Shown: in pieces, positions 2,521 to 35,894 of the stretch | Layout of the letters: each line of letters begins with the position of its first letter | How positions within the stretch are numbered: the first letter of the stretch is position 1 | Assembly (NCBI GenBank): GCA_000993025.1 | Contig: LBVJ01000001.1 | Coordinates: 29,699 to 93,698 of the forward strand | Reading direction: 5' to 3' | DNA length: 64,000 bases | Origin: Candidatus Woesebacteria bacterium GW2011_GWA1_38_8 | GTDB lineage: Bacteria; Patescibacteriota; Microgenomatia; UBA8517 | Notes under the pieces: model-generated | What the model saw: the letters and a program-made list of their open reading frames with translations, nothing else | Database searches by the model: none | Told to the model about the DNA's origin: nothing | Made by a program: the position numbers and the translations under genes

Positions 2521-2617
2521 GATTATGACCGTTAATCATATCAATGATCTCTCACATTTATTAATAAAAAATGAAGATATATAAATTACGGACAAGACTC
2601 AATGTAAATAATAAGGT

Positions 2618-3400: not shown

Positions 3401-3479
3401 GATATTCAAAATCTCATTATCTTCGGGATCTGGAATTGATAGCCGGTTTTAGAAGTTTTTTTGTAAAATATTTAGATAT

Positions 3480-4760: not shown

Positions 4761-4874
4761 CAAGTTATAAAGTGATTAAGCGGTTTAGAGATTCAGTAAA
4801 TAAGTAATCATTAATATTGTCCTTCTGCCTTGTTTTTATCTTCTGCCTAATATACAATCTGCCTTGAGTAAAAT

Positions 4875-6023: not shown

Positions 6024-6128
6024 GACATAAGTGATTAAGCGACTAAGCGAATAAGTAAGCAAGCAACAAATTAACCATTTAATCTCCCCTTCTTCAAATA
6101 CTTTAGGTAATATTGTAAAATTCTTAAC

Positions 6129-19317: not shown

Positions 19318-19320
19318 TAT

Positions 19321-19572
19321 ATGAAGGACAAATATCGGATCACGCACTATTTACCCTTGATTTCTGTGTTGCTTGCTACATTATTGGGTTTGTTTTTATT
19401 TCCCTACGACAAATCTATGCGAGTCTCGCTCACTGTGGCCATGGGAATCTCTTATGTAACTTGGGGAATTGTTCACCACTATATTCACAGAGATCTGAAT
19501 ATGGAAGTGGCGCTGGAATATTTGTTGATCGCAATATTTGGTGTATCCGCCGCGATCTTTGTTTTGATGTAA
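19321..19572 (+). CDS. Small two-TM membrane protein (hypothetical)
   Basis: 83 aa, two hydrophobic helices. Starts one codon after the TAA of the CAP gene, in the same frame. Confidence 0.35.
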   Translation: MKDKYRITHYLPLISVLLATLLGLFLFPYDKSMRVSLTVAMGISYVTWGIVHHYIHRDLNMEVALEYLLIAIFGVSAAIFVLM

Positions 19573-19578
19573 GAGTGT

Positions 19579-20472
19579 TTAGGATTGATCGAGGTTTTTG
19601 AGGAATTCAGAAAAGTCTTTTCCGATATCTGATCTTTCAAGGGCAAACAAGACTTGGGTTTGCATATAACGAAGCGGATCACCTGTCGTCAGCCATTTTC
19701 CTTCAATAGGTTGAGCTATAACTTTTTTGCCGGATTGCGCAAGATTATTGAGAACATCAGTGATCCAAAGCTCATTATCCTTTCCGGTAGAAGTGTTTTT
19801 AACTTCTTTTATTACGTCATAACTGAAAACAAACCGTCCAAATTGAGCCATATTCGATGGGTTTTTCCCCAATGGCATTTTTTCAAGAATGGTAGAAATT
19901 TCATAGTTTTTTTCCTTGTTCTTATATTTTACGGTTCCATATCGTTCCACATCAATGTCGGGTACTTCCTGTACAGCCAGAACAGCAGATGGAGAATTAT
20001 TGTAAAAAACATCAATAAGCTGTCTGGTAACGGGCTTTTTAGAAATCGTCAGATCATCGCCGAACATATAAACAACCGATTCATAATTGTCGATAAGGGG
20101 AGCAGCAACCAGTAAAGGGGTACCGTTCCCGTAAGGCAGATTTTTTTTCTGCCGGACGTAGACAAAGTTGGCCATCTGCGGAATATCCCTGACTTTTTTT
20201 AAGAGATCATCTTTACCATTTTTATCGAGCATATATTCAAGTTCCAATGAACTATCGAAGTAATCCTCCATAATTCCTTGTCCGGATCTTGTGACAATGA
20301 TAATGTCTGTGATTCCAGATGAAACACATTCTTCAACCAAATGATGAATTATCGGTTTATCAATTATCGGAAGCATTTCTTTCGGTTGATTTTTTGTTGC
20401 AGGCAAGAAGCGTGTTCCATAACCTGCTGCAGCTATTATTGCTTTTTTTATCTTTCTTCTATTGGTTTTCAC
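19579..20472 (-). CDS. galU: UTP--glucose-1-phosphate uridylyltransferase GalU
   Basis: KKAIIAAAGYGTRFLPATKNQPKEMLPIIDKPIIHHLVEE is the canonical GalU N-terminus. I place the start at GTG (complement of 20470-20472), 9 nt downstream of a TATAAT. The ORF-track start at 20574 adds an unconserved 34-aa extension and would overlap the divergent ykuK-like gene. Confidence 0.75.
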   Translation of the reverse strand: MKTNRRKIKKAIIAAAGYGTRFLPATKNQPKEMLPIIDKPIIHHLVEECVSSGITDIIIVTRSGQGIMEDYFDSSLELEYMLDKNGKDDLLKKVRDIPQMANFVYVRQKKNLPYGNGTPLLVAAPLIDNYESVVYMFGDDLTISKKPVTRQLIDVFYNNSPSAVLAVQEVPDIDVERYGTVKYKNKEKNYEISTILEKMPLGKNPSNMAQFGRFVFSYDVIKEVKNTSTGKDNELWITDVLNNLAQSGKKVIAQPIEGKWLTTGDPLRYMQTQVLFALERSDIGKDFSEFLKNLDQS

Positions 20473-20533
20473 AGTATGTAAATTATACCACAATAATTTG
20501 CTGTAAATATGAAAAAAGACGTATAATTCCAGC

Positions 20534-21031
20534 ATGGAAAATGGAAATATATTTAATAGTCCGAACGGAAACATTTACAATACCGGCGAACTCTTAAGGG
20601 AAATAAAATACTTTGTAGATGAACAACCTGCAGAATTTTATTCACTGATCATAGGCACTGACTCACAAACAAAGAGAATAAATGGAGTTTCAGAAATTGA
20701 TTTTGTTACCGCAATAATAATCTACAGGAAGAAAAAGGGGGCTAGATATTTTTGGACTAAAAAACAAGAGATAAAAAAAGCCGTCTTAAGAGATAAGATC
20801 TATACAGAGACTCTATTGAGTCTTGAATATGCGGAAAGTATAGTGCCTGAAATCAGAGGAATCATACCGCCCTCGAAGTACGACCTTGAAATACATATCG
20901 ATGTTGGACCATTTGGTAAAACAAGAAACATGATCCGTGAGGTAGTTGGTATGGTGACCGGAAATGGTTATGTCGCGAAAACTAAACCTGAAAGTTGGGG
21001 AGCAAGTTCGGTTGCTGATAAGCATACTTGA
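20534..21031 (+). CDS. YkuK-family (DUF458) RNase H-like protein
   Basis: 165 aa; SLIIGTDSQTKRINGVSEIDFVTAIIIY matches the GTDSQ-containing YkuK signature as remembered. Confidence 0.45.
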   Translation: MENGNIFNSPNGNIYNTGELLREIKYFVDEQPAEFYSLIIGTDSQTKRINGVSEIDFVTAIIIYRKKKGARYFWTKKQEIKKAVLRDKIYTETLLSLEYAESIVPEIRGIIPPSKYDLEIHIDVGPFGKTRNMIREVVGMVTGNGYVAKTKPESWGASSVADKHT

Positions 21032-21106: not shown

Positions 21107-21829
21107 ATGAAAGGAATAATATTGGCCGGGGGAAAGGGAACAAGGCTGCGTCCCTTAACAATAATTACCTGTAAACAGCTTCTTCCTGTTTACGACAAAC
21201 CAATGATATATTATCCGATCAACACTCTGGTCACCTCAGGAATAAAGGACATCTTAATAATAATCGCTCCTGAATATTCAGGACATTTCTTAAATTTACT
21301 TGGATCGGGAAAAGAATTCGGAGCGCGCTTCAGTTACGCAATTCAAGATGAGCCCAGAGGTCTTGCAGACGCTTTTATAGTGGGAGAGGATTTTATCGAT
21401 AATGACAACGTCACTCTTATCTTGGGCGACAATATTTTTGAAAAGGATTTTTCAACGGAAATTGGTTCGTTTAAATCAGGTGGAATGGTTTTTGCGAAAA
21501 AAGTTTCTGACCCTGAAAGATTCGGTGTTGTAGAGTTTGATAAAAAAATGAAAGCAACAAAGATCGTTGAAAAACCTAAAGATCCAAAGAGTGATTATGC
21601 AGTTGTTGGGCTTTATGTTTATGACAAAAATGTGGTTAAAAATGCCAAGAATCTCAAACCCTCCGATCGTAGAGAGATCGAAATTACCGATCTTAATAAT
21701 CTATATTTAAAAGAGGATAATCTGAAAGTGAATATTTTTGACGGGATTTGGGAAGACGCAGGGGATTTTGACAGCTTGTTAAGGGTGAGTAATTATATGG
21801 CAGGAAAAGCAGCAAGAATTAAGGGATGA
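21107..21829 (+). CDS. rmlA: Glucose-1-phosphate thymidylyltransferase (short-form RmlA-like sugar nucleotidyltransferase)
   Basis: MKGIILAGGKGTRLRPLT (G-x-G-T-R-L) nucleotidyltransferase motif; 240 aa; heads a rmlABCD block. Confidence 0.75.
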   Translation: MKGIILAGGKGTRLRPLTIITCKQLLPVYDKPMIYYPINTLVTSGIKDILIIIAPEYSGHFLNLLGSGKEFGARFSYAIQDEPRGLADAFIVGEDFIDNDNVTLILGDNIFEKDFSTEIGSFKSGGMVFAKKVSDPERFGVVEFDKKMKATKIVEKPKDPKSDYAVVGLYVYDKNVVKNAKNLKPSDRREIEITDLNNLYLKEDNLKVNIFDGIWEDAGDFDSLLRVSNYMAGKAARIKG

Positions 21830-21878
21830 GTAATAAGTGAGAAGTACGGGGAAAAGAATGAATGTGGTCAAAAAGATT

Positions 21879-21905
21879 TTTCTAGTACTTAGTTTCTAGT
21901 ACCTA
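21879..21905. promoter_or_regulatory. Tandem near-palindromic 13-nt repeat (TTCTAGTACNTAG x2) just upstream of rmlB
   Basis: ttctagtacttag-t-ttctagtacctag; each unit centred on the palindromes CTAG/GTAC. 15 nt upstream of the rmlB ATG. Confidence 0.25.
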
Positions 21906-21920
21906 GTATATATCGAACTT

Positions 21921-22925
21921 ATGAATTTATTAGTTACAGGAGGGGCTGGCTTTATCGGAAATAATTTTATTCGATATTGGCTTAATAAATATCCGAAAGA
22001 TAAAATATTAAATTTTGACAAGCTCACATATGCAGGACATATCAGTTCCACAAGAGATTTTTCCCAAAATAATAATTACGAATTTATAAAGGGAGATGTA
22101 TGTGACGCAAAAGCAGTAGACGAAGCAGTAAAAAAAACTGACACCATAGTTCACTTTGCTGCAGAAAGCCACGTGGATCGTTCAATACTTGACCCTTTGG
22201 TGTTTGTTCACACAAATGTCATGGGAACACAGGTTTTACTCGAAGCTGCTGTTAAGTATAAGATCAACAGATTTCATCACGTTTCCACTGATGAAGTTTT
22301 TGGTGAGCTTAAATTGGGAACTAATAAAAAATTTAATGAAACCACTCAATATGACCCCAAAAGTCCATATTCTGCCAGTAAAGCGGCTTCAGACCATTTG
22401 GTGAGAGCTTATGGGAAAACATATTCCCTACCGATCACGATATCAAACTGCTCTAATAATTACGGACCCTTTCAGGATCCCGAAAAATTTATACCTCGTG
22501 CAGTAACGAATTTAATTGACGGTAAATCTGTTCCTATATATGGAGACGGTAAATATACACGTGATTGGCTGTATGTTGAAGACCATGTAAGAGCAATAGA
22601 GACCATATTAACAAAAGGAAAGGCTGGAGAGACTTATCTTATAGGAGGATTGACTGAGGATATTAATAATTTAGAGGTTGTTAGAATGATATTAAAAATA
22701 TTAAATATAAATGGGTCATACATAAAATATGTAAAGGACAGAGCAGCGCATGACAGAAGATATGCAGTCGATTGGAGGAAAATTCATAGTAAATTGAAAT
22801 GGAAACCTATGTATGGTTTTGATACGTGGCTTGAAAAAACAGTTGAATGGTATAAAAATAACGAATGGTGGTGGAGGCCGTTAAAGAAAAAGGCTGAAGT
22901 ATTTTATAGAAATACCGAAAAATGA
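21921..22925 (+). CDS. rmlB: dTDP-glucose 4,6-dehydratase
   Basis: TGGAGFIGNNF Rossmann motif; catalytic YSASKAASD (YxxxK); SDR extended family; 334 aa. Confidence 0.9.
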   Translation: MNLLVTGGAGFIGNNFIRYWLNKYPKDKILNFDKLTYAGHISSTRDFSQNNNYEFIKGDVCDAKAVDEAVKKTDTIVHFAAESHVDRSILDPLVFVHTNVMGTQVLLEAAVKYKINRFHHVSTDEVFGELKLGTNKKFNETTQYDPKSPYSASKAASDHLVRAYGKTYSLPITISNCSNNYGPFQDPEKFIPRAVTNLIDGKSVPIYGDGKYTRDWLYVEDHVRAIETILTKGKAGETYLIGGLTEDINNLEVVRMILKILNINGSYIKYVKDRAAHDRRYAVDWRKIHSKLKWKPMYGFDTWLEKTVEWYKNNEWWWRPLKKKAEVFYRNTEK

Positions 22926-22929
22926 TTAT

Positions 22930-23547
22930 ATGAAGTGTAAAAACTTGGACGTAAATAAATTAAAAGTAAGTTGTGAACCATACATAATCGACACTCCTAT
23001 AGAAGGAGTTTTTGCCGTTAAACGTCCAAGATACGGTGATTCCCGTGGCAGTTTTCAAGAACTTTTGAGAATTCCGGATATTTCCAAACGATTTCAAGAA
23101 ACACAGATAGATCAATCTCAAATATCTGTATCGAAAGTTAATGTCTTACGGGGGATCCATGCAGAACCCAGAGACAAGATCATTACACCAATTTTAGGTA
23201 GGATGGCGGCGGTGGTTGTTGATTTAAGGGTTGAATCACCGACTTTTAAAATGTGGGTTCGTTTTGATTTTGATAATACAAATCCTGAAAATGAATTTAC
23301 CACTCTTTTTGTTCCTTCAGGATGCGGAAATTCTCTTTGTGTGTACAAAAAATCCGATGATGCAGGGGATGGTACTGTAATTTACCATTATACCTACAGT
23401 AGTATTTATGATCCTAAGTGGTCGGGATCGGGAGTCAGATATAATGATCCCCAACTTGATATTATTTGGCCGATTAAAAATCCCGTTTTATCCAATAGAG
23501 ACAAGGAACTTCCACTGCTTGACGAATTTATTGTAAAATACCGATGA
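22930..23547 (+). CDS. rmlC: dTDP-4-dehydrorhamnose 3,5-epimerase-like cupin (RmlC)
   Basis: 205 aa cupin with DSRGSFQE and GIHAEPRDK region resembling RmlC active-site segments; positioned between rmlB and rmlD. Confidence 0.65.
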   Translation: MKCKNLDVNKLKVSCEPYIIDTPIEGVFAVKRPRYGDSRGSFQELLRIPDISKRFQETQIDQSQISVSKVNVLRGIHAEPRDKIITPILGRMAAVVVDLRVESPTFKMWVRFDFDNTNPENEFTTLFVPSGCGNSLCVYKKSDDAGDGTVIYHYTYSSIYDPKWSGSGVRYNDPQLDIIWPIKNPVLSNRDKELPLLDEFIVKYR

Positions 23548-24449
23548 ATGATAAGGTGCTAATTACAGGTTCCGACGGAATGGTCGGCTCAAGGTTTGTT
23601 GAACTATATCCAAATAAAAACGAACTGCTTGCTCCAACAATCGCCGAATTTGACCTGTTGAATCCTCATTCGATGGAAAGATATCTGAAAAATAACCCGG
23701 TTTCGTCTGTAATTAATTTTGCAGCCTATACGGATGTGAGAGAAGCAGAGAAAGATAGAGGAAATGAAAATGGACTGTGCTGGAATATAAACATTAAGGG
23801 AATAAAAAATCTGGTTAGTCTATTCGGATCGAAAGTTCATCTTGTACATATTTCAACCGATATGGTATTTAGCGGAAGTAAAGATGATAAGGGACCTTAT
23901 AAAGAGGTACGATGTCCCGAGCGGGATCCGAGCAAGGTTACATGGTATGGTTATACCAAAGGGGAAGGTGAGAATATTATAAGAGAGGCGGATATTAGTT
24001 CAACAATAATAAGAATAATATATCCGGTCAGGGCAAAATATGATAATAAATCAGATTATCTGAGAAAACATTTGAAGCTATATAATGATGATGCATTGTA
24101 TCCGATGTTTAGTGATCAGAAAATATCTGTCACCTTTATTGATGAATTATGTACGACTATCGGTAAAATATTATCCGATAAAATACGTGGTGTCTATCAT
24201 TGTTCCTCAAGTGATACTACCACACCTTATGAACTGATCAGTTATTTAATTGAGGCTAAATATGGAGTGAAAAATACCGTGAAAAGTGCATCTATACATG
24301 AATTTTTGAGAACTTCGGATAATCCACTGAGATATCCCATATTCGGAGGATTAAAATGCGGCATTTCACAAAAAGCACTTGGTATCAGGTATTCCACTTG
24401 TAAGCAGATCGTGAACAAATTGATCGGGCAAAATATTTCTCCTAGATAA
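23544..24449 (+). CDS. rmlD: dTDP-4-dehydrorhamnose reductase (RmlD-like SDR)
   Basis: N-terminal VLITGSDGMVGSRF NAD(P)-binding motif, YGYTKGEGE (YxxxK); 301 aa; last gene of the rml block. Confidence 0.7.
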   Translation: MNDKVLITGSDGMVGSRFVELYPNKNELLAPTIAEFDLLNPHSMERYLKNNPVSSVINFAAYTDVREAEKDRGNENGLCWNINIKGIKNLVSLFGSKVHLVHISTDMVFSGSKDDKGPYKEVRCPERDPSKVTWYGYTKGEGENIIREADISSTIIRIIYPVRAKYDNKSDYLRKHLKLYNDDALYPMFSDQKISVTFIDELCTTIGKILSDKIRGVYHCSSSDTTTPYELISYLIEAKYGVKNTVKSASIHEFLRTSDNPLRYPIFGGLKCGISQKALGIRYSTCKQIVNKLIGQNISPR

Positions 24450-24593: not shown

Positions 24594-27572
24594 ATGGATA
24601 AATACATAATAAATATATATACAAGCAGCGATATTTCATGGAGAACTAAAGTCTATTTGAAGAAGATCGGACGATTATTTACTGGTAATAAAAATGTTTC
24701 AGTGCCGATGGGTGCTGTCTTTAACAAAAGGAACAGATACGAAAAAAATAATATTGTTTATGAAACATATAATGGACTTGAAAAAGAATTCTCGGCTTTT
24801 GAAACCCTGACTGATGGTCAGAAATTATATTGGTCGATAGTTATAATTTCTCTTTTGATCCTGGGACTAATTAATATTCACTTCATGCTTGTTCTTATAG
24901 TCGGCTCTTTGACGTTTATCTACTTTGCCGATTTTTTGTTTACGCTTCTTATTATTGCGCGGTCATTTGCAAATAAATCGGAAATTAAATTCACAAATGA
25001 TGAGCTCGTCGAATTGGATGATTTCACTCTTCCAAGATACACGATACTGTGCCCGCTTTATAAGGAATGGGAGGTAATTGAACAATTTGTAAGATCAATA
25101 GAGATCATCGATTGGCCGAAGGACAAACTTGAAGTAATACTCCTTCTCGAGGAAGACGATACAAAAACAATTAATAAGGCATATGATCTTAATTTACCTT
25201 CCTATTTTCGAATCGAGGTAGTACCAAACTCGCTTCCGAAAACAAAACCAAAGGCATGTAATTATGGCTTGTCTAAAACTACGGGAGAATTTGTTGTCGT
25301 ATATGATGCTGAGGATAAGCCGGATCCCCTTCAGCTTAAAAAAGCCTACCTTGCATTTTCAAGGCTTCCGGAGAACGTTTCGTGCCTGCAATCGAAACTG
25401 AATTACTATAACCAGAACCAGAATATTTTAACAAGGCTATTTACGGCAGAATATTCTTATTGGTTTAATATTGCCCTAACCGGTCTTCAGACATTGAATA
25501 CAATTATTCCTCTTGGAGGGACAAGCAACCATTTTAGGACACCTTTTCTTAAAGATCTGCAGGGGTGGGATCCTTTCAATGTGACCGAGGATTGCGATCT
25601 CGGTACGAGGCTTTTTAAAAAGGGATATAGGACATCCGTTATTGATTCCGAAACGCTCGAAGAGGCAAATTCCAATATTAAAAGTTGGCTCAAACAGAGA
25701 TCGCGATGGATTAAGGGCTACATGCAGACATATCTTGTTCACATGAGAAATCCTATGGAATTTTTAATCAGATATAAACACCACGCTTTACTTTTTCAAT
25801 TGATCATCGGAATGAGAATGGTCTTTATTATTATAAATCCGATCCTATGGCTGATGACTATAGCGTATTTTTCAATGTATCCGGTATTTGGACCTTTTAT
25901 CGAATCGTTATATCCATGGTACATCTTCTATCCGGCTGTATTTTGTCTGATTTTTGCGAATTTTACGTATTTGTATTCATTCATGATCGCATCGGCTAAA
26001 AAAGACAAATGGGAACTTATCCAATACATATTTCTGATGCCTTTTTACTGGCTACTGACAAGTATCTCAGCCGGAATCGCATTTCATCAACTTATAACTA
26101 ACCCATACTATTGGGAAAAGACTAAACATGGGCTTCATTTGGGTAAAAATGAATCGGTTGATAAGGTGTCGGGTATACTGGATATCACAACTACTCCCGT
26201 CTTTCAATTTCCTTACTTTAAATATTTACAAGGCTTTCCGGGTAAATTTATTGTGTCGATTAGGTTGGTGATAAATTTCAAACCTATGGGGATAAAAATA
26301 TCGACCATATCCTTAAGGGAATTAATTTATACGGCAAAAGCATCGCTATACATTAATATTATATCTTTCATCAAACTATTCGGAAATGTAAATATCTCAC
26401 GTCCGCATAATAATAAACAAAACATATTGATCCTGAACTGGAGAGATGTCGGACATGTATGGAAAGGCGGAGCGGAAGTATATGTTCAGGAAATCGCAGA
26501 AAGATGGGTAAAGGGTGGATATGGAGTTACGATCCTCAGCGGAAATGACGGTAATTCCATGTACGATGAAAAAATACACGGTGTAAATATTATGAGAAGG
26601 GGTGGGTTTTTTACCCTGTATCTGTGGGTTTTGATATATTATGTATTCCGACTCCGAAAACATTTTGACCTTATTGTTGATTGTGAAAACGGGATACCCT
26701 TCTTTTCACCCCTGTACAGTACGCTTCCGAAAATTCTTCTCATCCATCATGTCCATCAACAGATCTTCAGGGAAAATTTACCGCTTCCATTCTCCTGGCT
26801 GGCAATGTTTCTGGAGTCGCGTGTCATGAAATATGTCTATAGATCAACAAAAATTGTGACGGTTTCCGAATCAAGTAAAGCCGACATCGCCGGACTTGGG
26901 CTTTCAAAGATCGAGGATATTGAAATAGTAACCCCGGGTATAAACCTCAGGAATTTCAGGAAACTTAAAAAATACACATTTCCCACCTATTCATATCTGG
27001 GTAGATTGATGCCCTATAAAAATATTGATATTTTAATAAAGGCATTTAAAGAAGTGTTACAAAGTGTTCCGGATGCAAAACTTATCATTGCTGGAAGGGG
27101 TCAGTACGAAGAACATCTCAATAGACTTGTTCATAAACTTGATATAGAAAGATTTGTTGAATTTAAGGGTTATGTCAGCGAAAATGAAAAGAGAGAGATC
27201 TTGGGTAGAAGCTGGTTTCTGGTCCAGCCTTCGTCATTTGAAGGTTGGGGAATGACAGTAACAGAGTCAAACGCTGCGGGTACGCCTGTGATCGCGTCAA
27301 ACACCGCAGGATTGAGGGATTCCGTACTAGACGGGCAAACCGGAATACTGGTTAAAACGAAAAGCGTTAAAGAATTGGCAAGATCGATGATAGCGCTGAC
27401 AGAAATGGATGGATTCAGAGAAAGGATTTCAAGAAATGCATATGATTGGTCACGCAAATATTCTTGGAATGTTTCTGCAAGGTTATTTATAAATATACTA
27501 AACAGAGAATCCGTCTCTCCTGCACTAGTTGAGGAGGGTTCAGCAAGCTCAGTGGCGTATTTGGAGGAATAA
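24594..27572 (+). CDS. Bifunctional membrane glycosyltransferase: processive-type GT2 synthase domain (DxD, QxxRW) fused to a C-terminal GT4 domain
   Basis: 992 aa. N-terminal TMs; GT2 core with YDAEDKPD (DxD) and QRSRWIKG (QxxRW), followed by 4-5 TM helices as in cellulose/hyaluronan/NodC-type synthases. Residues ~600-990 form a GT4 domain (EGWGMTVTESNAAGTPVIASNTAGLRDSV). Confidence 0.7.
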   Translation: MDKYIINIYTSSDISWRTKVYLKKIGRLFTGNKNVSVPMGAVFNKRNRYEKNNIVYETYNGLEKEFSAFETLTDGQKLYWSIVIISLLILGLINIHFMLVLIVGSLTFIYFADFLFTLLIIARSFANKSEIKFTNDELVELDDFTLPRYTILCPLYKEWEVIEQFVRSIEIIDWPKDKLEVILLLEEDDTKTINKAYDLNLPSYFRIEVVPNSLPKTKPKACNYGLSKTTGEFVVVYDAEDKPDPLQLKKAYLAFSRLPENVSCLQSKLNYYNQNQNILTRLFTAEYSYWFNIALTGLQTLNTIIPLGGTSNHFRTPFLKDLQGWDPFNVTEDCDLGTRLFKKGYRTSVIDSETLEEANSNIKSWLKQRSRWIKGYMQTYLVHMRNPMEFLIRYKHHALLFQLIIGMRMVFIIINPILWLMTIAYFSMYPVFGPFIESLYPWYIFYPAVFCLIFANFTYLYSFMIASAKKDKWELIQYIFLMPFYWLLTSISAGIAFHQLITNPYYWEKTKHGLHLGKNESVDKVSGILDITTTPVFQFPYFKYLQGFPGKFIVSIRLVINFKPMGIKISTISLRELIYTAKASLYINIISFIKLFGNVNISRPHNNKQNILILNWRDVGHVWKGGAEVYVQEIAERWVKGGYGVTILSGNDGNSMYDEKIHGVNIMRRGGFFTLYLWVLIYYVFRLRKHFDLIVDCENGIPFFSPLYSTLPKILLIHHVHQQIFRENLPLPFSWLAMFLESRVMKYVYRSTKIVTVSESSKADIAGLGLSKIEDIEIVTPGINLRNFRKLKKYTFPTYSYLGRLMPYKNIDILIKAFKEVLQSVPDAKLIIAGRGQYEEHLNRLVHKLDIERFVEFKGYVSENEKREILGRSWFLVQPSSFEGWGMTVTESNAAGTPVIASNTAGLRDSVLDGQTGILVKTKSVKELARSMIALTEMDGFRERISRNAYDWSRKYSWNVSARLFINILNRESVSPALVEEGSASSVAYLEE

Positions 27573-28685: not shown

Positions 28686-30533
28686 ATGGATGAGATAGTA
28701 AATTATATAGTTATAAATAAAATAAAATGTTATTTTATATCCCCTCATCAGGACGATGCAATATTTTCGGCAGGGGGACTTATATCGTATCTTTCAAATA
28801 AGACGGAGGTAAAGGTCATAAACGTATTTAACGGTATCGGAAAACCACCCTATACTTTGTCCGGAAATGTATTTGTTAAAAGAAGCGGATGTAAGAGTGT
28901 CAAAGACCTGTGTGATAAAAGACACCTTGAAGATGCTTCGGTGTTTAAAGAGATGGGAGTAGATATGATTAATCTAAATTTTGATGATGCGTTGTGGAGA
29001 AAAAAACCAATTATTAAAACACACGAAAGGATTATCGGGAAAGTATTACCTGAGATATTGCACATATATCCAATTTACCGTACATCAATTGCGCATGGAC
29101 AGATTAAAAAATCGGATGAGAGTAACTTGGGAAAAATAGAAAAGGCCTTACGTAAAAACATTAAAGGCAAAAATGTGTTCGTTTTTTGTTCAGCGTCGAT
29201 TGGAGGACACGTTGATCATAAGATTGTAAGAAATATATGTGAGAGTAGCTTCAAAAACTTATATTTGTGGTCGGATTATCCTTACAACATCAGACTCGGT
29301 AATTATAAGAATTACAAAAGTATTTCGGAAAATGATTATTTTGAATTCAAATACGGTCAACCTAAAAGATTTGAAATGATCAAAAAATATATAACTCAAA
29401 AAAATGTCTTTAAAAATAACCAAATTAGAGTTACAAAGGAAATTTATTATTTCAAAGGAAAGTATGAAAATCTTATTAAAGAATCACGGGAGGGAATAAT
29501 TAACATAGAAACTAAACAGACATTAGATGAAAAACTTAAAAGTGATTGGATAGCGCTTTGGAATAGAAGCGACAACGCAAACATATCAAACTCACCTGAC
29601 TGGTTTGAAATATGCAATAAAACATATAAGTATAAGAATATCAATTTTGTATGTGCATACTGCGGTAAAGATTTGGTTGGTATCTTGCCGCTTCGGAAAG
29701 AGAAGTTTCTGTTTTTTGAACATTACACAACTATGGGTGGCAGGTATACCGACAAACTTGAGTTATTGACAGCAAGAAATTCCACAAATCTCTTGAATAA
29801 AATTATTCTGTACGCAAAAAAGCAATTTGACAACATTTCGCTTCCTGAATCTGATTTCGAAACTGCAATGTATTTGGCAAATGTATGGAATGCAAAATAC
29901 TCATGTTCTTCCGTGACTCCATATATTCCGGCAACAGACAACTATTTAGAGTTTTTATCCCGAAAACATAAAAAGGCAATGGACCATATTTTGAAAAGCC
30001 ACGGAGATAAACTGAAATTTAAAATTATTGGGGAGAAGCACCTGGATTATCTGGATCAAATTGTCCGTTTAGAAAGAAAAAGCACTAAATCAACCAAAAG
30101 AATCGGAACTATTAAATGTGCAAATGATATAAGATTTTTACGAAATATCATTTCAAAGTTTAACAAGAATATTTGTCTGGTTTTACTTTTTTACAATGGC
30201 AGGTTGGCTGCTTTTCGTATTGGGGCGGGTGTAAAGGGGGTTTATTATACATTTATGACTGCATACCGGGAATTCGCCAGGGAAGTTATTCCGGGAAGGT
30301 TGCTTCTTTATTATGTTTTAAGAAATAGACTTCGTGAAGGTATTTCGAAAGTTGACATGCTACGTGGTGATAATCAAATAAAAAGAGATTACACACCTTT
30401 CATGGAATACAGGTTTAACGTGTATCTGGGATACCGTCTATTTTCGTACAGTAATATATTATTTTGCAAATTAAAATATTTTATAGATCAGCATAGTTTT
30501 TTGTACAAAATATGTTTGTTGGTTAAACATTAA
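28686..30533 (+). CDS. Fusion of PIG-L/LmbE-like N-acetylglucosaminyl deacetylase (N-terminal) and FemAB/CelD-like (Acetyltransf_6/GNAT-fold) acyltransferase domain (C-terminal)
   Basis: 615 aa. N-terminal YFISPHQDDAIFSAGG (LmbE SPHPDDE-type zinc-binding motif) and later His-rich segment (GGHVDHKIV). The C-terminal ~330 aa resemble BioF2-like/CelD/FemAB acyltransferase domains (large GNAT-like, ends ...DMLRGDNQIKRDYTPFMEYRFNVYLG). Confidence 0.55.
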   Translation: MDEIVNYIVINKIKCYFISPHQDDAIFSAGGLISYLSNKTEVKVINVFNGIGKPPYTLSGNVFVKRSGCKSVKDLCDKRHLEDASVFKEMGVDMINLNFDDALWRKKPIIKTHERIIGKVLPEILHIYPIYRTSIAHGQIKKSDESNLGKIEKALRKNIKGKNVFVFCSASIGGHVDHKIVRNICESSFKNLYLWSDYPYNIRLGNYKNYKSISENDYFEFKYGQPKRFEMIKKYITQKNVFKNNQIRVTKEIYYFKGKYENLIKESREGIINIETKQTLDEKLKSDWIALWNRSDNANISNSPDWFEICNKTYKYKNINFVCAYCGKDLVGILPLRKEKFLFFEHYTTMGGRYTDKLELLTARNSTNLLNKIILYAKKQFDNISLPESDFETAMYLANVWNAKYSCSSVTPYIPATDNYLEFLSRKHKKAMDHILKSHGDKLKFKIIGEKHLDYLDQIVRLERKSTKSTKRIGTIKCANDIRFLRNIISKFNKNICLVLLFYNGRLAAFRIGAGVKGVYYTFMTAYREFAREVIPGRLLLYYVLRNRLREGISKVDMLRGDNQIKRDYTPFMEYRFNVYLGYRLFSYSNILFCKLKYFIDQHSFLYKICLLVKH

Positions 30534-30584: not shown

Positions 30585-32120
30585 TTGGGTGTTTTCCAAA
30601 TATTTATGAAATTTTTAAGTACATTATATATATTCATAATTACCTTACTATTAATTTCACTATTAACGAAGGGTGTGCGTTCTAACATAATGCCGTCAGA
30701 TGTTTATTCTTTAAAGGATTACTCCCAACCCTTTGAACTTTCACCTGAGAGAGGAAGGTATGCTTTGACTCAATCAATTGTTGAGAATCATAGTTTGTTT
30801 CTCCCATTGGAAATTGCTGGATATGTCACACCCGATCTTGGTTATATTAATGGAAACTTTGTTTCTCTATTTGCGCCAGGAGTATCTTTTGTGGTTATAC
30901 CATTTTATTATATCGGTAAATATTTTAATGCAAACCAGCTTTTCACTTTTTGGTCTGTAGGATTGGCTGCTGTAATCAATGCGTATATCATTTCTGACAT
31001 TGTTAACCGTATTACTAAATCAGGATTTGGCTACATCGCGGGATTGTCTTTTATTTTTGCTACTTCCGCATTAGCTTACGCGACTACATTATATCAACAC
31101 CATTTTACGACACTGATTATTTTGCTAGCACTTCATATAACCATATTTTCAAATAATACAAACAATTCATTGTTAATGGGTGTCCTGTTTGGGGTAATGT
31201 TATTGATAGAATATCCGGCAGTCATATTTTTACTCCCAATTATATTGGTTTATATGTTTAGACATTATTGTTCACTTCAAAACAAAGAATCATTTAAAAT
31301 TTCGATAGATTCCAGAATAATGCTATTTATCTTATACGTATTCATAGGAATAATTCCAACTTTGATTTACAACAGTTATGTAAATACAAACCCCTTTAAA
31401 CTTTCCGGAACTGTAGAATCTGTCGAGAACATAAATATAAATAACAATGGTTCAGGTTATGAAATCATAAAAGGAGAAACTGATGAGTTTAAAAAAAGCG
31501 TTGGAGGATTTTTCAAATATGAAAACATTGCAAATAGTTGGTATATATTGCTTTTAAGTAGTGAAAGAGGAATTCTGTTTTACTCTCCACTGTATTTACT
31601 TACCATATTAATATTTAATTTGAAAAACAAAATATCAGATATCGAAAAATACCCATTTTATCTTTTAGTATCAATTAATTTTGCAGTATTATTGTTATAC
31701 GGTATGTGGGGAGATCCGTGGGGCGGTTGGGCATTCGGACCAAGATATTTAATTCCATTCTTTGCTTTTTCCTCAATATTATTGGGAATAGTGTTTAAGT
31801 ATTATGCATACAGTCATTGGTTTAAATTATCTTATTTTACACTTCTAGTTTACTCAATCTTAATAAATGTTGCTGGTGCTCTGACTACAAATGCAATTGT
31901 TCCAAGTAAAGAAGCAGAATCTGCATTGATGCCAACAATAAAATACCTATATAATTTTGAGTTGATTGGATTCGGAAAGTCGTCTTCATTTATTTACAAC
32001 ACATATTTTAGTAAGTACATTCCGCTAACCGTATTTTATATTCTTATAATTGCAATTATCGTTTTCTTGTTATTCCTCGCAAATAAGATGTCATCAGATA
32101 AAATATCTCATGAAAATTAA
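30585..32120 (+). CDS. Polytopic membrane protein, GT-C-fold glycosyltransferase-like (ArnT/PMT-like)
   Basis: 511 aa, >=11 TM helices. Conserved acidic/Arg motif in the first extracytoplasmic loop (SPERGRYALTQS), as in lipid-linked-sugar-dependent GT-C enzymes. Confidence 0.45.
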   Translation: MGVFQIFMKFLSTLYIFIITLLLISLLTKGVRSNIMPSDVYSLKDYSQPFELSPERGRYALTQSIVENHSLFLPLEIAGYVTPDLGYINGNFVSLFAPGVSFVVIPFYYIGKYFNANQLFTFWSVGLAAVINAYIISDIVNRITKSGFGYIAGLSFIFATSALAYATTLYQHHFTTLIILLALHITIFSNNTNNSLLMGVLFGVMLLIEYPAVIFLLPIILVYMFRHYCSLQNKESFKISIDSRIMLFILYVFIGIIPTLIYNSYVNTNPFKLSGTVESVENININNNGSGYEIIKGETDEFKKSVGGFFKYENIANSWYILLLSSERGILFYSPLYLLTILIFNLKNKISDIEKYPFYLLVSINFAVLLLYGMWGDPWGGWAFGPRYLIPFFAFSSILLGIVFKYYAYSHWFKLSYFTLLVYSILINVAGALTTNAIVPSKEAESALMPTIKYLYNFELIGFGKSSSFIYNTYFSKYIPLTVFYILIIAIIVFLLFLANKMSSDKISHEN

Positions 32121-34815
32121 CTTTATAAATCGCAAAGTGGTGATTTCTTTTAATGATAAATCAATAAAGAAATCATTGAATTTTTATAATAAACATGGTG
32201 TATTGGTTGTGACCATATTCACTTCAATTTTGAGTTTTATATCGATATTGGTTTCATATAAATACGATATTATCCTTGCATATAACGATTCTCGTGCCCA
32301 TATGAATATGGCAAGACTTGTGTTTGATAATTTGAAACCCGGGTTTGCCCAGTTGGGGGGGGTGTGGCTTCCCTTTCCTCATATTATGATACTTACACTT
32401 GTATGGAATGATTGGTTGTGGCAGAGCGGGATTGCTGGATCAATTTATTCAATGTCTTTTTATGTTCTTTCATCAATATATATTTTTAAGCTTCTTAGAT
32501 TTTTAATTAAAGATAAGGTAACTGTATTTATCTGCACTCTAAACTATGTTATTAACGTCAATTTATTGTACATGCAATCAACTCCAATGACTGAATTAAC
32601 GTTGATATTCTTTTTTATAACCTCTGTCTATTATTTACTTCAATGGGTAAATACTAAAAAAGTATTACATATGATTTTACTTGCATTATCGGTTTTTTTG
32701 GCAACTCTTACAAGATATGATGGATGGATGCAATTTCTAACAACATTGACTGTTTTAATTATTGTTGAATTTATGGAATTTAAGACTAATTTCAGAAAAA
32801 ATAATTTTGGTTCTATTATTAAAAGCATTTTATTGAACGCGAAGATGCGTTCAACTATCTTATTTTTTAGTGTTATGGCAGGTCTTGGAATATTGTTATG
32901 GATCCTGTGGAATTATTTGATATTTGATGACCCTATATATTTTGCAGTTGGTCCATATTCCGCAAGGGCTCAGCAATTTGCCATAGAAAGTGCTGGAAAA
33001 CTTTTTACAAAACACAATATTGCACTTTCATTATCTGCATATTGGTGGGCTGTATCCGATAACGTTGGAATAATCGTTTTGCTCACGGGTATTATAGGTT
33101 TTATATGTTTTGTAATGGAAAATCCAAATAAATACACTAAAATTGTGCTTTTAACACTTTTTTCTCCGGCTATATTTCATATTGCTTCGTTATATTTAGG
33201 AAGTTCAGTGTTGGTGTTGCCAGAAATGAATATTAATGTTGCAGAGGGATTGAAGGGAACACTTTTTAACGCAAGGTATGGATTGATAATGCTTCCCGCA
33301 GTAAGTGTTTTTATGGCATATTTTGCAAGGAGAAGCGTCTTCGCAAAGTCTATTGTATTTTTTGTTGTCATATTTACACCTCTTATGATGTTAAAGGATA
33401 ACTATATTATCACTTTGACAGATGGAAAAATGGGGTCAAGTTCACTTAGAGTGAAAGATGTTAGTGAATGGCTGAAACAGAACGCCGATGACAGTAATGA
33501 ATTAATATTGACAGCACTATCATACAATAGCGCACTTTCTTTCAGCACAGGATTTCCATTAAGCAGATTTATCCATGAAGGAACTGGAAAATATTGGGAA
33601 TCCTCTGTAGTTGATCCTGATCAATATGCGGATTGGATTGTAATGGCAAATGGAGATGTCGGGGATCCCTTGTATGACTCATTAATAAAGAAACATGATT
33701 CACAATTCTTAAGGAATTATGAATTGAAAAAACGATTTGAATTTATTGATGTCTATGTAAAAAAATATGTACCAGATGATTTTGTATATGTTAGAGATAG
33801 TGGTTTTTGGATGAATGGTGATAGATACAAGTTTCTTGGAGTAAATTCCTATGACCTAATTTTCCGCTCTCCAAATGAAGTTGCCTCGACACTGTCATCG
33901 GCAAAAAACAATGGAATTGATGTGGTCAGAGTATGGGTTTTTGGTGAAGGTAGTGAAAATTTAATACAACCTGAACCCGGAAAGTATAATTCAATACTTA
34001 TGAACAATGTGGATTATGTTTTGGCAACAGCATACAAGTTGGATATGAAAGTGATACTCGTCATGTCAAATTATTGGGAAGCATATGGGGGAATAAGACA
34101 GTATTTGCGATGGGTAGATTTACCTGACCAATCAGCTTCAGATTTAGATGCATTCTTTACCGATAGTCGAACAAAAGATATCTACAAAGACTTTATAAGG
34201 GAGATAGTTCTAAGAAAAAACAGTCTAACGGGAGAATTATACAAAAACGACCCCGCAATATTTTCTTGGGAGCTTATGAACGAACCTAGAAGTTCTTCGA
34301 CCGGAACAGCCGGAAAGGTTACTGAATGGATAGATGAAATGTCTAGTTTTATCAGAACATTGGATAAATATCACATGATTACGTCAGGCCACGAAGGACA
34401 CTTTAGTGACTTCTCAATAAACCCATATGCAACAGGTCCATTTATCGATCAGTTTGGTCATAAATCCGATTTTGATGCGTTGTCTGGACATTATTATATT
34501 GATCAATACATATCAGAAAAACCACTTTATGAATTTGAAATAATTGACAAGTGGAGCGACCATGCAAAGGAAATTGATAGGGCGTTTTTTATTGAGGAAA
34601 TCGGTTTTTCAAAAAGATCTGGGGAAAACTCTGGTTATGATAGATTGTTTCTTTATGAAAAACTTTTTGAATCGGCAAAGAAAAACGATGTACAGGGTGT
34701 TATTGTTTGGAATTGGGCTTTAAAAATTGATGATGATTTTGGTATTTCGCCACTCGATCCAAACGACGAAAAACTTATAAAGTTATTAAACTTATATTCA
34801 AAAAGTCTAAAATAA
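32110..34815 (+). CDS. Fusion: N-terminal polytopic GT-C-like membrane domain + C-terminal GH5-family (beta-mannanase/cellulase-like) glycoside hydrolase domain
   Basis: Start taken as ATG 32110 (MKINFINRK); the ORF-track start at 32050 overlaps the previous gene by 70 nt. Residues 1-480: ~12 TM with AYNDSRAHMNMARLV loop motif. Residues ~560-900: GH5 (beta/alpha)8 signatures, including the acid/base WELMNEPR (NEP) and nucleophile FFIEEIGFS motifs. Confidence 0.6.
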   Translation: MKINFINRKVVISFNDKSIKKSLNFYNKHGVLVVTIFTSILSFISILVSYKYDIILAYNDSRAHMNMARLVFDNLKPGFAQLGGVWLPFPHIMILTLVWNDWLWQSGIAGSIYSMSFYVLSSIYIFKLLRFLIKDKVTVFICTLNYVINVNLLYMQSTPMTELTLIFFFITSVYYLLQWVNTKKVLHMILLALSVFLATLTRYDGWMQFLTTLTVLIIVEFMEFKTNFRKNNFGSIIKSILLNAKMRSTILFFSVMAGLGILLWILWNYLIFDDPIYFAVGPYSARAQQFAIESAGKLFTKHNIALSLSAYWWAVSDNVGIIVLLTGIIGFICFVMENPNKYTKIVLLTLFSPAIFHIASLYLGSSVLVLPEMNINVAEGLKGTLFNARYGLIMLPAVSVFMAYFARRSVFAKSIVFFVVIFTPLMMLKDNYIITLTDGKMGSSSLRVKDVSEWLKQNADDSNELILTALSYNSALSFSTGFPLSRFIHEGTGKYWESSVVDPDQYADWIVMANGDVGDPLYDSLIKKHDSQFLRNYELKKRFEFIDVYVKKYVPDDFVYVRDSGFWMNGDRYKFLGVNSYDLIFRSPNEVASTLSSAKNNGIDVVRVWVFGEGSENLIQPEPGKYNSILMNNVDYVLATAYKLDMKVILVMSNYWEAYGGIRQYLRWVDLPDQSASDLDAFFTDSRTKDIYKDFIREIVLRKNSLTGELYKNDPAIFSWELMNEPRSSSTGTAGKVTEWIDEMSSFIRTLDKYHMITSGHEGHFSDFSINPYATGPFIDQFGHKSDFDALSGHYYIDQYISEKPLYEFEIIDKWSDHAKEIDRAFFIEEIGFSKRSGENSGYDRLFLYEKLFESAKKNDVQGVIVWNWALKIDDDFGISPLDPNDEKLIKLLNLYSKSLK

Positions 34816-34897: not shown

Positions 34898-35845
34898 ATG
34901 AAAGTGTCACTTGTTGTTACCGTACTAAATGAAGAACCGTCGATTGCAGCACTTCTCGAGTCTATTATTTCTCAGTTAAAGAAACCTGATGAGATTGTTA
35001 TTGTCGATGGTGGTTCAACCGACAAGACTGTAAACATAATAAAAAGTTATCAAAAAATTATTAAGAATATAAAATTATATGAATTTAAGACTACAAGATC
35101 CGAAGCGAGAAATATTGGAATAGATGCATCTTCAGGCAATATTATTGTTACAACAGACGCAGGTTGCGTTGCCGAAAAACATTGGATAGAAAAGATTACA
35201 AAACCGTTTTATGAACCAAAAGTTGATATGGTTGCAGGATTTTATGAAATGATCGGCGGTAATTCTTCATTAAGGCTTGCAATGTCCGTATTTATTGGTA
35301 TAACACCTGACAAATTTGATGATAGATTTTTGGCGTCGGCTAGATCTTTGGCATTCCGAAAAGATCTTTGGGAGAAAGTAGGAGGGTTTCCTGAAGGTTT
35401 GAAAGATACCGCAGAAGATACACTTTTCAATTACAAAATTATTACAACAGGGGCGAAGATAGTACGTGTAAAAGATGCGGTTGTGTACTGGCAATTGCCG
35501 TTGACTTTGACGGAAGGGATCAAAAAAATGTATCTTTATGCCAAAGGTGATGCTTTATCCGGTATATGGTGGCATCCGGTAAAGAAATTATCGACCCACA
35601 ACATTAAGATCATCTCCGTATATTTAAGGTATGTAATTGGTATCTATATACTCCTTATGGCCACAAAATATGAATTGTTTAATTTACTGTTCGTATTGGG
35701 AATATTTTTTTATATGTTTTGGGCATTTAAGAAAGTATACTGTCGGACGAACAGTTTTAAAGCCGGTTTGTGGGGGGTAATTATACAGTTTGCTTCGGAC
35801 ATTGCCGTAATGCTCGGCTTCCTTATGGGATTGGTGTCAATATAA
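34898..35845 (+). CDS. GT2-family glycosyltransferase with C-terminal membrane helices
   Basis: SLVVTVLNEE...IVIVDGGSTDKT GT2 N-terminus; TTDAG DxD-like motif; C-terminal 3 TM. Confidence 0.7.
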   Translation: MKVSLVVTVLNEEPSIAALLESIISQLKKPDEIVIVDGGSTDKTVNIIKSYQKIIKNIKLYEFKTTRSEARNIGIDASSGNIIVTTDAGCVAEKHWIEKITKPFYEPKVDMVAGFYEMIGGNSSLRLAMSVFIGITPDKFDDRFLASARSLAFRKDLWEKVGGFPEGLKDTAEDTLFNYKIITTGAKIVRVKDAVVYWQLPLTLTEGIKKMYLYAKGDALSGIWWHPVKKLSTHNIKIISVYLRYVIGIYILLMATKYELFNLLFVLGIFFYMFWAFKKVYCRTNSFKAGLWGVIIQFASDIAVMLGFLMGLVSI

Positions 35846-35894
35846 CCTTCAGAAACATTTAAGGCATTAAGAATGATAAAATCAGATCATTGAT

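Follow-up and report, generated by a model that had tools for sequence, protein, structure and literature searches.

A membrane synthase-type GT2 fused to a GT4 in Candidatus Woesebacteria as the CPR version of a putative cross-phylum surface-glycan system

Introduction

Membrane-embedded glycosyltransferases of family GT2, such as the cellulose synthase BcsA, the hyaluronan synthases (HAS) and PgaC/IcaA, are the kind of enzyme to which the N-terminal half of a 992-aa protein from Candidatus Woesebacteria bacterium GW2011_GWA1_38_8 belongs, while the C-terminal half of the same polypeptide is a glycosyltransferase of family GT4. The gene was analysed within a stretch of 64,000 nt (assembly GCA_000993025.1, contig LBVJ01000001.1, positions 29,699-93,698), referred to below as the window. 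The protein is the version of a cross-phylum surface-glycan system that is found in the candidate phyla radiation (CPR, Patescibacteria), of the Microgenomates type, and its GT4 half is a CPR-specific add-on. The literature offered nothing specific on a described GT2-GT4 fusion from CPR or on a characterised GT2 with an N-terminal MshEN domain.

BcsA, which works with BcsB and BcsZ, has eight membrane helices and a PilZ domain, whereas the window protein has 2+2(+1) helices and no PilZ match, and its score against the NCBIfam CelA model TIGR03030 (47.5 bits, cut-off 699.1) is far from that of an orthologue. The hydrolase of Bcs systems is a GH8 enzyme instead of the glycoside hydrolase family 5 (GH5) enzyme found here, and Bcs systems are not known to have GT-C-like partners or a fused GT4. 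PgaC/IcaA is similar in size and helix layout, and the NCBIfam PgaC_IcaA model aligns with aa 108-502 over nearly its full length, but the score (TIGR03937, 59.8 bits against a cut-off of 422.3) shows that the window protein is not an orthologue. Deacetylases are encoded nearby in both systems; those found here are PIG-L/CE4 proteins without signal peptides, hence cytoplasmic, whereas PgaB/IcaB are secreted, and no equivalent of PgaD/IcaD was identified.

NfrB of E. coli is a processive-type GT2 with DxD, TED and QxxRW motifs plus an MshEN domain, like the non-CPR homologues described below, and provides a precedent for a GT2 synthase under the control of cyclic di-GMP (c-di-GMP) through MshEN (PMC8669469). 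The MshEN domain of NfrB is C-terminal, after two transmembrane (TM) helices, whereas it is N-terminal in the non-CPR homologues and missing from the window protein. The clostridial cellulose synthase locus ccsZABHI, which is of Gram-positive type, has GH5 CcsZ and not a GH8 as cognate hydrolase, a precedent for a synthase-associated GH5 at a Gram-positive synthase locus (PMC7710045). CcsA has a PilZ domain, and its partners, the carbohydrate-binding-module-like CcsB and an acetylation pair of MBOAT/DHHW type, include neither GT-C-like proteins nor a GT4.

Like the window protein, PmHAS (class II), E. coli K4 KfoC and PmHS1/2 are single polypeptides with two glycosyltransferase active sites. 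These enzymes are soluble or peripheral, with two GT-A-type domains (GT2+GT2 or GT2+GT45) and no TM channel, whereas the window protein joins a membrane-embedded GT2 to a GT4 of GT-B fold; class I HAS carries out both transfers with a single GT2 domain and has 4-6 TM helices. An earlier note on this DNA had likened the protein to bifunctional polymerases of class I hyaluronan, chondroitin and teichoic acid type. The chondroitin-type comparison fails because the second domain is a GT-B-fold GT4 and not GT-A, and the first domain is integral to the membrane. The hyaluronan comparison is imprecise: the fold is similar, yet there is an additional GT4, the sequence match to HAS is weak and the tail reads WEKTxH instead of WGTR. 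The teichoic acid (TagF/TarF) comparison finds no backing, as the CDP-glycerol or CDP-ribitol glycerophosphotransferase domain (Glyphos_transf) is not among the Pfam and NCBIfam matches of the 992-aa protein.

The GT4 half has its best sequence and fold matches in MshA, BshA and PimA/PimB', with which it shares the EX7E motif, the Arg/Lys phosphate-binding residues and the Gly-rich loop; none of these enzymes is fused to a GT2, and their NCBIfam models score far below cut-off. The MshA/MshB and BshA/BshB pairs are mirrored by a GT4 and PIG-L pair adjoining the fusion gene. The three-component systems GtrB/GtrA/GtrC, CsbB/GtcA/YfhO and ArnC/ArnT combine a DPMS/GtrB-like GT2, a flippase-like module and GT-C-like proteins, as do long forms of the fusion and the non-CPR loci. 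Neither the DPMS-like GT2 nor the flippase module is part of the window protein, whose own GT2 is BcsA-like, not GtrB-like; the protein falls outside the DPMS/GtrB/ArnC group, which has a DPM1-like GT-A domain without QxxRW.

Architecture of the fusion protein

The ATG-start open reading frame (ORF) for the 992-aa protein (Table 1) has exactly the extent given in the earlier note. All Pfam matches exceed their curated cut-offs, namely Glyco_tranf_2_3 (aa 147-375, 9.5e-19), Glyco_trans_2_3 (aa 234-428, 3.5e-23) and Glycos_transf_2 (aa 151-291) in the GT2 half, and Glyco_transf_4 (aa 625-785, 2.2e-14; 54.3 bits against a cut-off of 28.5) and Glycos_transf_1 (aa 793-952, 1.6e-40; 138.9 bits against 26.4) in the GT4 half, so that the domain search proposed earlier returned both families. 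NCBIfam gave only sub-threshold matches on the protein, which is not filed as PgaC, CelA, MshA, BshA, PelF or similar. AlphaFold2 (AF2) with a family alignment modelled it at a mean per-residue confidence (pLDDT) of 85.6, and most of each catalytic half exceeds 90. The architecture recurs in more than 100 independent protein clusters; the fusion is therefore real, and an assembly or frameshift artefact is ruled out.

An inverting GT2 of synthase type, embedded in the membrane and of the BcsA/HAS/PgaC kind, makes up the N-terminal half. D189 and the DAED, TED and QRSRW motifs are all present; together with the EX7E motif of the GT4 half, the GT2 motifs are invariant in a 67-sequence alignment and occur in 119-120 of the 120 best homologues, and no catalytic motif is missing from either half. 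The earlier view of this half as a processive, membrane-embedded GT2 stands on Pfam, motifs, helices and fold, with one correction: the 'DCD' at 333-335 overlaps TED, and the genuine DxD-type motif is DAED. The QxxRW motif is typical of processive beta-GT2 enzymes (PMC8669469).

In a search of a cross-phylum profile of the GT2 half against the PDB, BcsA was the best solved relative (E 2.8e-21, 79 bits) and its alignment matched each motif in turn, KAxN, DxD, the FFCGS-equivalent 'GGTS', VTED and QRxRW, and went on through interface helix IF2 and the next TM helix. The Pyrobaculum membrane GT2 PcManGT (6yv7), which we take to be a mannosyltransferase acting on a lipid-linked acceptor in N-glycan assembly, aligned only with the N-terminal nucleotide-binding part (profile positions 84-190, 51 bits). 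HAS gave a weak match limited to the C-terminal part (E 5.9e-7), and DPMS was marginal (E 0.007). Foldseek with the GT2 half alone returned only membrane-embedded synthases at the top, BcsA and the Xenopus and Chlorella virus hyaluronan synthases followed by chitin synthases, while KfoC and PmHS2 were weaker fold matches to the GT-A core. The GT-A domain with its D, DxD, TED and QxxRW, its TM and interface helices on either side and its likeness to solved synthases are the features of a membrane-embedded processive GT2, for which a continuous TM glycan channel and export-coupled processive synthesis would be expected. The gene context is likewise of synthase type, with GH5 in CPR loci and MshEN and a BcsB-like gene at non-CPR loci; the window itself holds no c-di-GMP module and no BcsB.

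The tail motif WEKTxH after the last hydrophobic helix does not vary within CPR and is conserved to at least 90% across phyla (consensus YWEKTxHG); it is a candidate equivalent of the BcsA gating loop or the HAS WGTR motif. At the other end, an element preceding the first TM helix (aa ~45-73) is conserved family-wide, and the position of the N-terminal region is occupied in other members by a DPMS-like GT2 (CPR long forms) or by MshEN (other phyla).

The C-terminal half, judged from its sequence, is a complete GT4, as had been noted; it is of the retaining type and has intact catalytic motifs. Its nearest Foldseek matches are the retaining enzymes MshA and BshA (E 1e-22 to 1e-20), and TM-scores of 0.78-0.81 against MshA, BshA and SPS, normalised by target length, agree with a two-Rossmann fold. 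E883, E891, R804, K809 and G625-G626 are invariant in the 67-sequence alignment. The NCBIfam MshA model scored 92.9 bits against a cut-off of 462.5. AF2 gave no confident packing between the two halves, and the predicted TM-score (pTM) of 0.57 for the full protein compared with 0.78 for residues 1-600 indicates that no fixed GT2/GT4 arrangement is predicted. The helix at 574-594 is probably a structural part of the GT4 module in these models, because it is modelled confidently only when the GT4 is present (pLDDT 81-93 against 51-61).

Membrane topology

The GT2 domain is preceded by hydrophobic helices at aa 74-93 and 95-126 and followed by those at 396-427, 442-469 and 473-502, with QRSRW on IF2 (aa 362-383). 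The loop 428-441 has no Lys or Arg, the turn 470-472 reads KDK and the tail has many Lys and His residues, a positive-inside pattern. Between the tail and the GT4, the modal count of TM-like peaks is 12 in long-form homologues (56 of 78), and 20 of 41 short forms have none, which places tail and GT4 on the same side of the membrane. As the GT4 depends on nucleotide sugars it must be cytoplasmic; both catalytic domains are therefore best placed, and most parsimoniously so, in the cytoplasm, and the two domains do not fall on opposite membrane faces, the outcome that was to count against the earlier note. Helix 473-502 would then take the position of BcsA IF3 and not cross the membrane. This assignment comes from TM parity and the positive-inside rule, that is, from topology logic, because hydrophobic-moment analysis found the helix hydrophobic and not amphipathic, and hydropathy alone is ambiguous.

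The GT2 system beyond CPR

With one genome per GTDB species, the GT2-GT4 fusion was found in Patescibacteria-type metagenome-assembled genomes only. The GT2 half alone (aa ~50-520) has homologues of 42-48% identity in Paenibacillus, Cohnella, Desulforamulus, Nocardioides, Paraconexibacter, Chloroflexi, Planctomycetota and others. These proteins, of 711-788 aa, have MshEN, a c-di-GMP receptor domain, at the N-terminus (up to E 5.9e-30), keep the same invariant acceptor and catalytic residues, and end just past the WEKTxHG tail. No GT4 homologue adjoins the non-CPR GT2 genes by tblastn; the sole GT4-like matches at these loci are weak (25-27% identity) and lie ~5-6 kb upstream at two Paenibacillus loci.

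In Desulforamulus aeronauticus DSM 10349 (locus L051:5555-19307), two GT-C-like proteins, the MshEN-GT2, a BcsB-like protein (PF03170, 7e-45), a GT2 with GtrA_DPMS_TM, ManC, phosphomannomutase and a MOP flippase are encoded together. This is a complete unfused system in a cultured organism and would be a tractable model. A homologue of the second of the window's two GT-C-like proteins (partner 2 below) stands beside the stand-alone GT2 in Chloroflexi, Desulforamulus and Paenibacillus. Four Chloroflexi loci (L048, L049, L050, L052) encode a synthase-type GT2 fused to a GT-C-like membrane domain (958-993 aa; e.g. L050:9812-12793), which is a Rosetta-stone link between these two conserved partners.

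Modular architectures in CPR

The 120 best homologues, the search for which had been proposed in the earlier note, belong to Patescibacteria (Woesebacteria, Roizmanbacteria and Microgenomates by source names). Some homologues bear the JGI label 'XagB'. The core GT2-GT4 form of the window accounts for 16 of them, 20 add an N-terminal soluble GT2 of ~200 aa, seven add a polytopic insert of ~360-450 aa between tail and GT4, and seven are intermediate; the commonest architecture (n=70, ~1,540-1,630 aa) has both additions. These four-module polypeptides (P0013-P0117; e.g. P0016, L004:10001-14635) read, in order, DPMS/GtrB-like GT2, synthase-type GT2, ~12-TM MOP-like domain and GT4. The N-terminal GT2 has homologues in the stand-alone DPMS/GtrB-type genes of Desulforamulus and Paenibacillus (hhalign 99.7% and 99.4%). 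The insert, which sits at the site of the inter-domain linker of the window protein, is called MOP/Wzx-like because of its match to the Desulforamulus MOP flippase (hhalign 74.5%, E 2.7e-5, 272 columns) and recurrent sub-threshold PF01943 matches; its hhalign match to the window's own Wzx is weak (E 0.07). A profile of the insert matched none of the window ORFs, so no separate copy of the module is detectable in the window. Since relatives of 65-73% identity (P0003, P0005, P0008) carry the insert and the window protein does not, the module was gained or lost recently.

Some CPR genomes appear to have a second, unfused synthase-type GT2 paralogue beside its own GT-C-like pair and GH5-like gene (L006:22102-23390, L027:10001-11407), with no GT4 found by tblastn in the fetched flank. 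In addition, a CPR-type fusion of ~50-60% identity occurs in records titled in GTDB as 'uncultured Gammaproteobacteria/Bdellovibrionales/Pseudomonadales bacterium' (L007, L011, L013, L015, L017, L020, L022 and others). These records share downstream cluster genes with the window, and L007 and L015 also the upstream CAP, RNaseH-like and rml genes; these titles are probably unreliable.

Conserved partners

The conservation of the window cluster proteins was followed by tblastn against 86 fetched loci. The genes that travel with the GT2-GT4 are homologues of a 511-aa membrane protein (partner 1), of the membrane N-terminal half of a 921-aa protein (partner 2) and of its GH5 C-terminal half (partner 3), whereas rmlABCD, the stand-alone GT4, PIG-L and Acetyltransf_6 occur at subsets of loci only. 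Partners 1 and 2 are paralogous (hhalign 93%, E 2.6e-7) and distantly PMT_2/GT-C-like, with PMT_2 matches in 10 of 23 and 2 of 17 members (best E 7.4e-8). Partner 2 and the GH5 are two genes in most relatives and are fused likewise in L057. The GH5 domain, at window positions 33520-34815, has kept both of its catalytic motifs, NEP and EE; where the enzyme is encoded by a gene of its own it has a membrane anchor at the N-terminus, and in a relative it is membrane-anchored or secreted. The conserved core is thus the GT2 with two paralogous GT-C-like membrane proteins and an extracytoplasmic GH5 hydrolase. For the gene of partners 2 and 3, a TTG start at 32050 overlaps the preceding gene, and the ATG at 32110 is more likely.

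A GalU-like gene, which is kept upstream in the closest relatives, and the rml genes immediately upstream of the fusion suggest UDP-glucose and dTDP-rhamnose as donors in this organism. The rml linkage was dropped as a family-wide clue to the donor sugar, since it is retained in the closest relatives only and is not a family property. Firmicutes loci carry ManC and phosphomannomutase in place of the GalU-like and rml genes; the donor genes and the GH5 would fit a backbone of beta-glucan or beta-mannan type.

Proposed role of the fusion and alternatives

The conserved GT-C and GH5 partners, the c-di-GMP module, the BcsB-like neighbour and the BcsA-type motifs together are the grounds for reading the GT2 half as an exported beta-glycan synthase. 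It would polymerise a beta-linked backbone from nucleotide sugar at the cytoplasmic face and pass the chain across the membrane by a synthase-dependent route. The GH5 would trim the glycan outside, where the GT-C-like proteins may, on the outer face, attach sugars linked to lipid phosphate or act in transfer of the polymer. The fused GT4 is placed as a CPR-specific accessory at the cytoplasmic membrane face that serves the same product, since it is absent outside CPR, is held by a long flexible linker and, in most relatives, is separated from the GT2 site by a 12-TM domain. It might make an alpha-linked lipid or sugar primer or anchor, or add alpha-linked branches; this is the least certain step, as is the corollary that the GT4 does not serve as the obligatory second site of an alternating copolymerase. 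To this joint reading, of a BcsA-like synthase and exporter with trimming GH5, GT-C-like proteins acting outside and an accessory GT4, we assign a probability of about 0.5.

Several points weigh against it. No family member has been characterised, and processivity, product and translocation are all inferred. A universal pairing with GT-C-like proteins occurs, to our knowledge, in no described synthase system. The deacetylases without signal peptide or TM segment point to cytoplasmic, possibly lipid-linked intermediates. After the GT2 domain there are one TM pair and one hydrophobic helix, fewer than in the channels of BcsA and HAS, and the helix placed at the IF3 position lacks the amphipathic character. 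Finally, the strict conservation of the GT4 and of the fusion across CPR could equally mean that chain growth cannot do without the GT4.

The strongest rival is a lipid-carrier pathway of lipoglycan type, which is possible, if on the unlikely side. The GT2 would here have a minimal cellulose-synthase-like fold and, acting non-processively or with short processivity, transfer sugar to a membrane lipid or a lipid-linked oligosaccharide at the cytoplasmic face; the fused GT4, the stand-alone GT4, PIG-L and the acyltransferase would build up the same intermediate, the MOP flippase would flip it, and on the outside the GT-C-like proteins would lengthen it, drawing on polyprenyl-phosphate sugars from the DPMS-like GT2, following the logic of mycobacterial phosphatidylinositol mannoside, lipomannan and lipoarabinomannan (PIM/LM/LAM) or glycosylphosphatidylinositol (GPI) anchor assembly. 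Such a pathway would account for the universal position of the GT2 beside, or fused with, GT-C-like proteins, for the DPMS/GtrB-like GT2 and MOP flippase fused to or adjoining it, for the cytoplasmic deacetylases and the GT4 and PIG-L pairing, and for the few TM helices and the PcManGT fold match. However, the motifs track BcsA through TED and QRxRW while PcManGT aligns in its N-terminal part only (79 against 51 bits), MshEN control, the BcsB-like neighbour in relatives and the conserved extracytoplasmic GH5 are hallmarks of an exported-polymer synthase, and an invariant QxxRW is typical of processive beta-GT2 enzymes (PMC8669469).

In the model of the earlier note, GT2 and GT4 alternate strictly to build a disaccharide repeat without a lipid-phosphate initiator. 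Both motif sets are present in nearly every homologue, and many CPR lineages have the fusion as a fixed trait; the two domains lie on the cytoplasmic side, supply routes for two nucleotide sugars are encoded just upstream, and two-domain polymerases such as KfoC and PmHS2 exist elsewhere. Even so, such a copolymerase is improbable, as GT2 homologues of 42-48% identity in other phyla function with neither a fused nor an adjoining GT4, the conserved partners are GT-C and GH5 proteins, and the unfused CPR paralogues apparently lack a GT4 in the fetched flank and stand each beside their own GT-C pair. The disordered linker of ~55 aa without a confident inter-domain interface, the 12-TM domain between the two sites in long forms and the look of a pathway fusion given by the extra modules of CPR relatives (DPMS-like GT2, flippase-like) speak against it as well. 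The known membrane-embedded synthases keep the growing end in the GT2 pocket and make alternating polymers at one site, as class I HAS does, and the known two-site polymerases are not channel-forming. The absence of an initiating phosphoglycosyl transferase (PF00953 or PF02397) among the window ORFs scanned, which had been cited for this model, does hold and counts in its favour; by itself it is no argument for a synthase route because the cluster also contains Wzx-like and Wzy_C-like genes, and it is entirely possible that the initiating enzyme is encoded elsewhere in the genome. It is less likely still, and very unlikely in itself, that the two halves belong to separate pathways and are fused for no more than joint expression or recruitment of the GT4 to the membrane; the GT4 could then be, for example, a rhamnosyl- or GlcNAc-transferase of the neighbouring Wzx/Wzy-type pathway. 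The flexible linker, the Wzx, Wzy_C and many other glycosyltransferases of the cluster and the lack of the GT4 in the non-CPR system would suit this; the fusion, however, persists through all four architectures and in divergent CPR classes, also at loci with no rml or Wzx/Wzy genes nearby, which argues for functional coupling of GT2 and GT4.

Beyond the exported beta-glycan synthase with an accessory GT4, a bolder proposal, which we regard as doubtful, is a hitherto undescribed hybrid pathway shared across phyla. A BcsA-like synthase would be obligatorily coupled to GT-C outer-face transferases and condensed in CPR into 'assembly lines' of up to four modules (polyprenyl-phosphate-sugar synthase, synthase, flippase and GT4), the GT4 making a lipid-linked primer or anchor that the synthase extends to give a membrane-anchored surface glycan.

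Further genes of the window

The stand-alone GT4 and the PIG-L/Acetyltransf_6 (FemAB-like) fusion protein follow the fusion gene directly. The GT4 and PIG-L pair occurs in ~12 CPR loci, about half of them with the Acetyltransf_6 part as well. The PIG-L/Acetyltransf_6 protein has no TM segment and is thus taken as cytoplasmic, and no signal peptide or TM segment was detected in any deacetylase of the clusters. Likeness to MshA/MshB, BshA/BshB and PIG-A/PIG-L suggests, by analogy, that GlcNAc may be added, deacetylated and re-acylated in the cytoplasm.

Downstream of partners 2 and 3, a GT2 with C-terminal TM segments and a MOP flippase (35895-37112) may be stand-alone counterparts of the modules fused in long forms. 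The same cluster holds a Wzy_C protein (42916-44091) and many other glycosyltransferases, including a 753-aa protein (39867-42128, +) with an N-terminal GT2 and a ~10-TM membrane domain, which is followed by a further GT2 and the Wzy_C-type protein. Upstream of rmlA, a trio kept in the closest relatives (18331-21031) consists of a CAP-domain protein, the divergent GalU-like gene and an RNaseH_like protein (PF04308). At the start of the window (275-10114), FtsW, MurG, FtsA and FtsZ are followed by IleRS and a second FtsW/RodA-family gene; these cell-division and wall genes indicate a chromosomal context and not a mobile element. mraY was not found in the window, which begins inside the dcw cluster, downstream of the usual mraY position.

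Table 1. Features of the GT2-GT4 gene and its neighbourhood in window coordinates
Feature	Position	Strand	Basis
Whole ORF, 992-aa synthase-type GT2 + GT4 fusion	24594..27572	+	Pfam, AF2, homologues
N-terminal cytoplasmic region, aa 1-73, mostly low-confidence	24594..24812	+	AF2, alignment
TM1-TM2 helical hairpin, aa 74-126	24813..24971	+	Hydropathy, AF2
GT2 GT-A catalytic domain ending in interface helix IF2, aa 147-383	25032..25742	+	Pfam, AF2, fold and profile comparison
D238-A-E-D241, DxD-type metal/nucleotide motif, aligned with BcsA DCDH	25305..25316	+	Motif, alignment
T331-E-D333, TED catalytic base motif, aligned with BcsA VTED	25584..25592	+	Motif, alignment
Q368-R-S-R-W372, QxxRW acceptor-binding motif on IF2, aligned with BcsA QRIRW	25695..25709	+	Motif, alignment
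Post-catalytic membrane region, aa 396-502: TM pair 396-427/442-469, hydrophobic helix 473-502	25779..26099	+	Hydropathy, AF2
Tail motif W507-E-K-T-K-H512	26112..26129	+	Alignments
Disordered inter-domain linker, aa ~516-573 (~55 aa)	26139..26312	+	AF2
Helix, aa 574-594	26313..26375	+	AF2
GT4 domain, GT-B fold, retaining-type, aa ~605-975	26406..27518	+	Pfam, NCBIfam, Foldseek
GT4 EX7E motif, E883...E891	27240..27266	+	Motif, alignment
Partner 1: 511-aa polytopic GT-C-like (PMT_2-like) membrane protein	30585..32120	+	
Partner 2 (GT-C-like membrane domain) fused to partner 3 (GH5 hydrolase)	32110..34815	+	
GalU-like UTP-glucose-1-phosphate uridylyltransferase gene	19579..20574	-	TIGR01099, E 1e-74, below NCBIfam cut-off
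rmlA, rmlB, rmlC, rmlD (dTDP-L-rhamnose synthesis), immediately upstream	21107..24449	+	
Stand-alone GT4, 368 aa	27575..28681	+	
PIG-L deacetylase fused to Acetyltransf_6 (FemAB-like)	28686..30533	+	
GT2 with C-terminal TM segments (GtrB-like architecture), then MOP/Wzx flippase	34898..37112	+	

Significance

Most CPR bacteria are uncultured epibionts with very small genomes, and next to nothing is known of the chemistry of their envelopes. The GT2-GT4 family is conserved across many CPR classes and often lies in the largest glycan cluster of the genome, and it is therefore a strong candidate for making a major surface polymer that could mediate attachment to the host. Natural gene fusions such as these serve as Rosetta stones for which proteins work together, and the presence of the GT2 family, there with its c-di-GMP receptor domain, in cultivable Paenibacillus, Nocardioides and Desulforamulus makes the system genetically testable. 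If the hybrid pathway is true, its glycan would take over the function of lipoteichoic acid or lipoglycan in these minimal-genome organisms.

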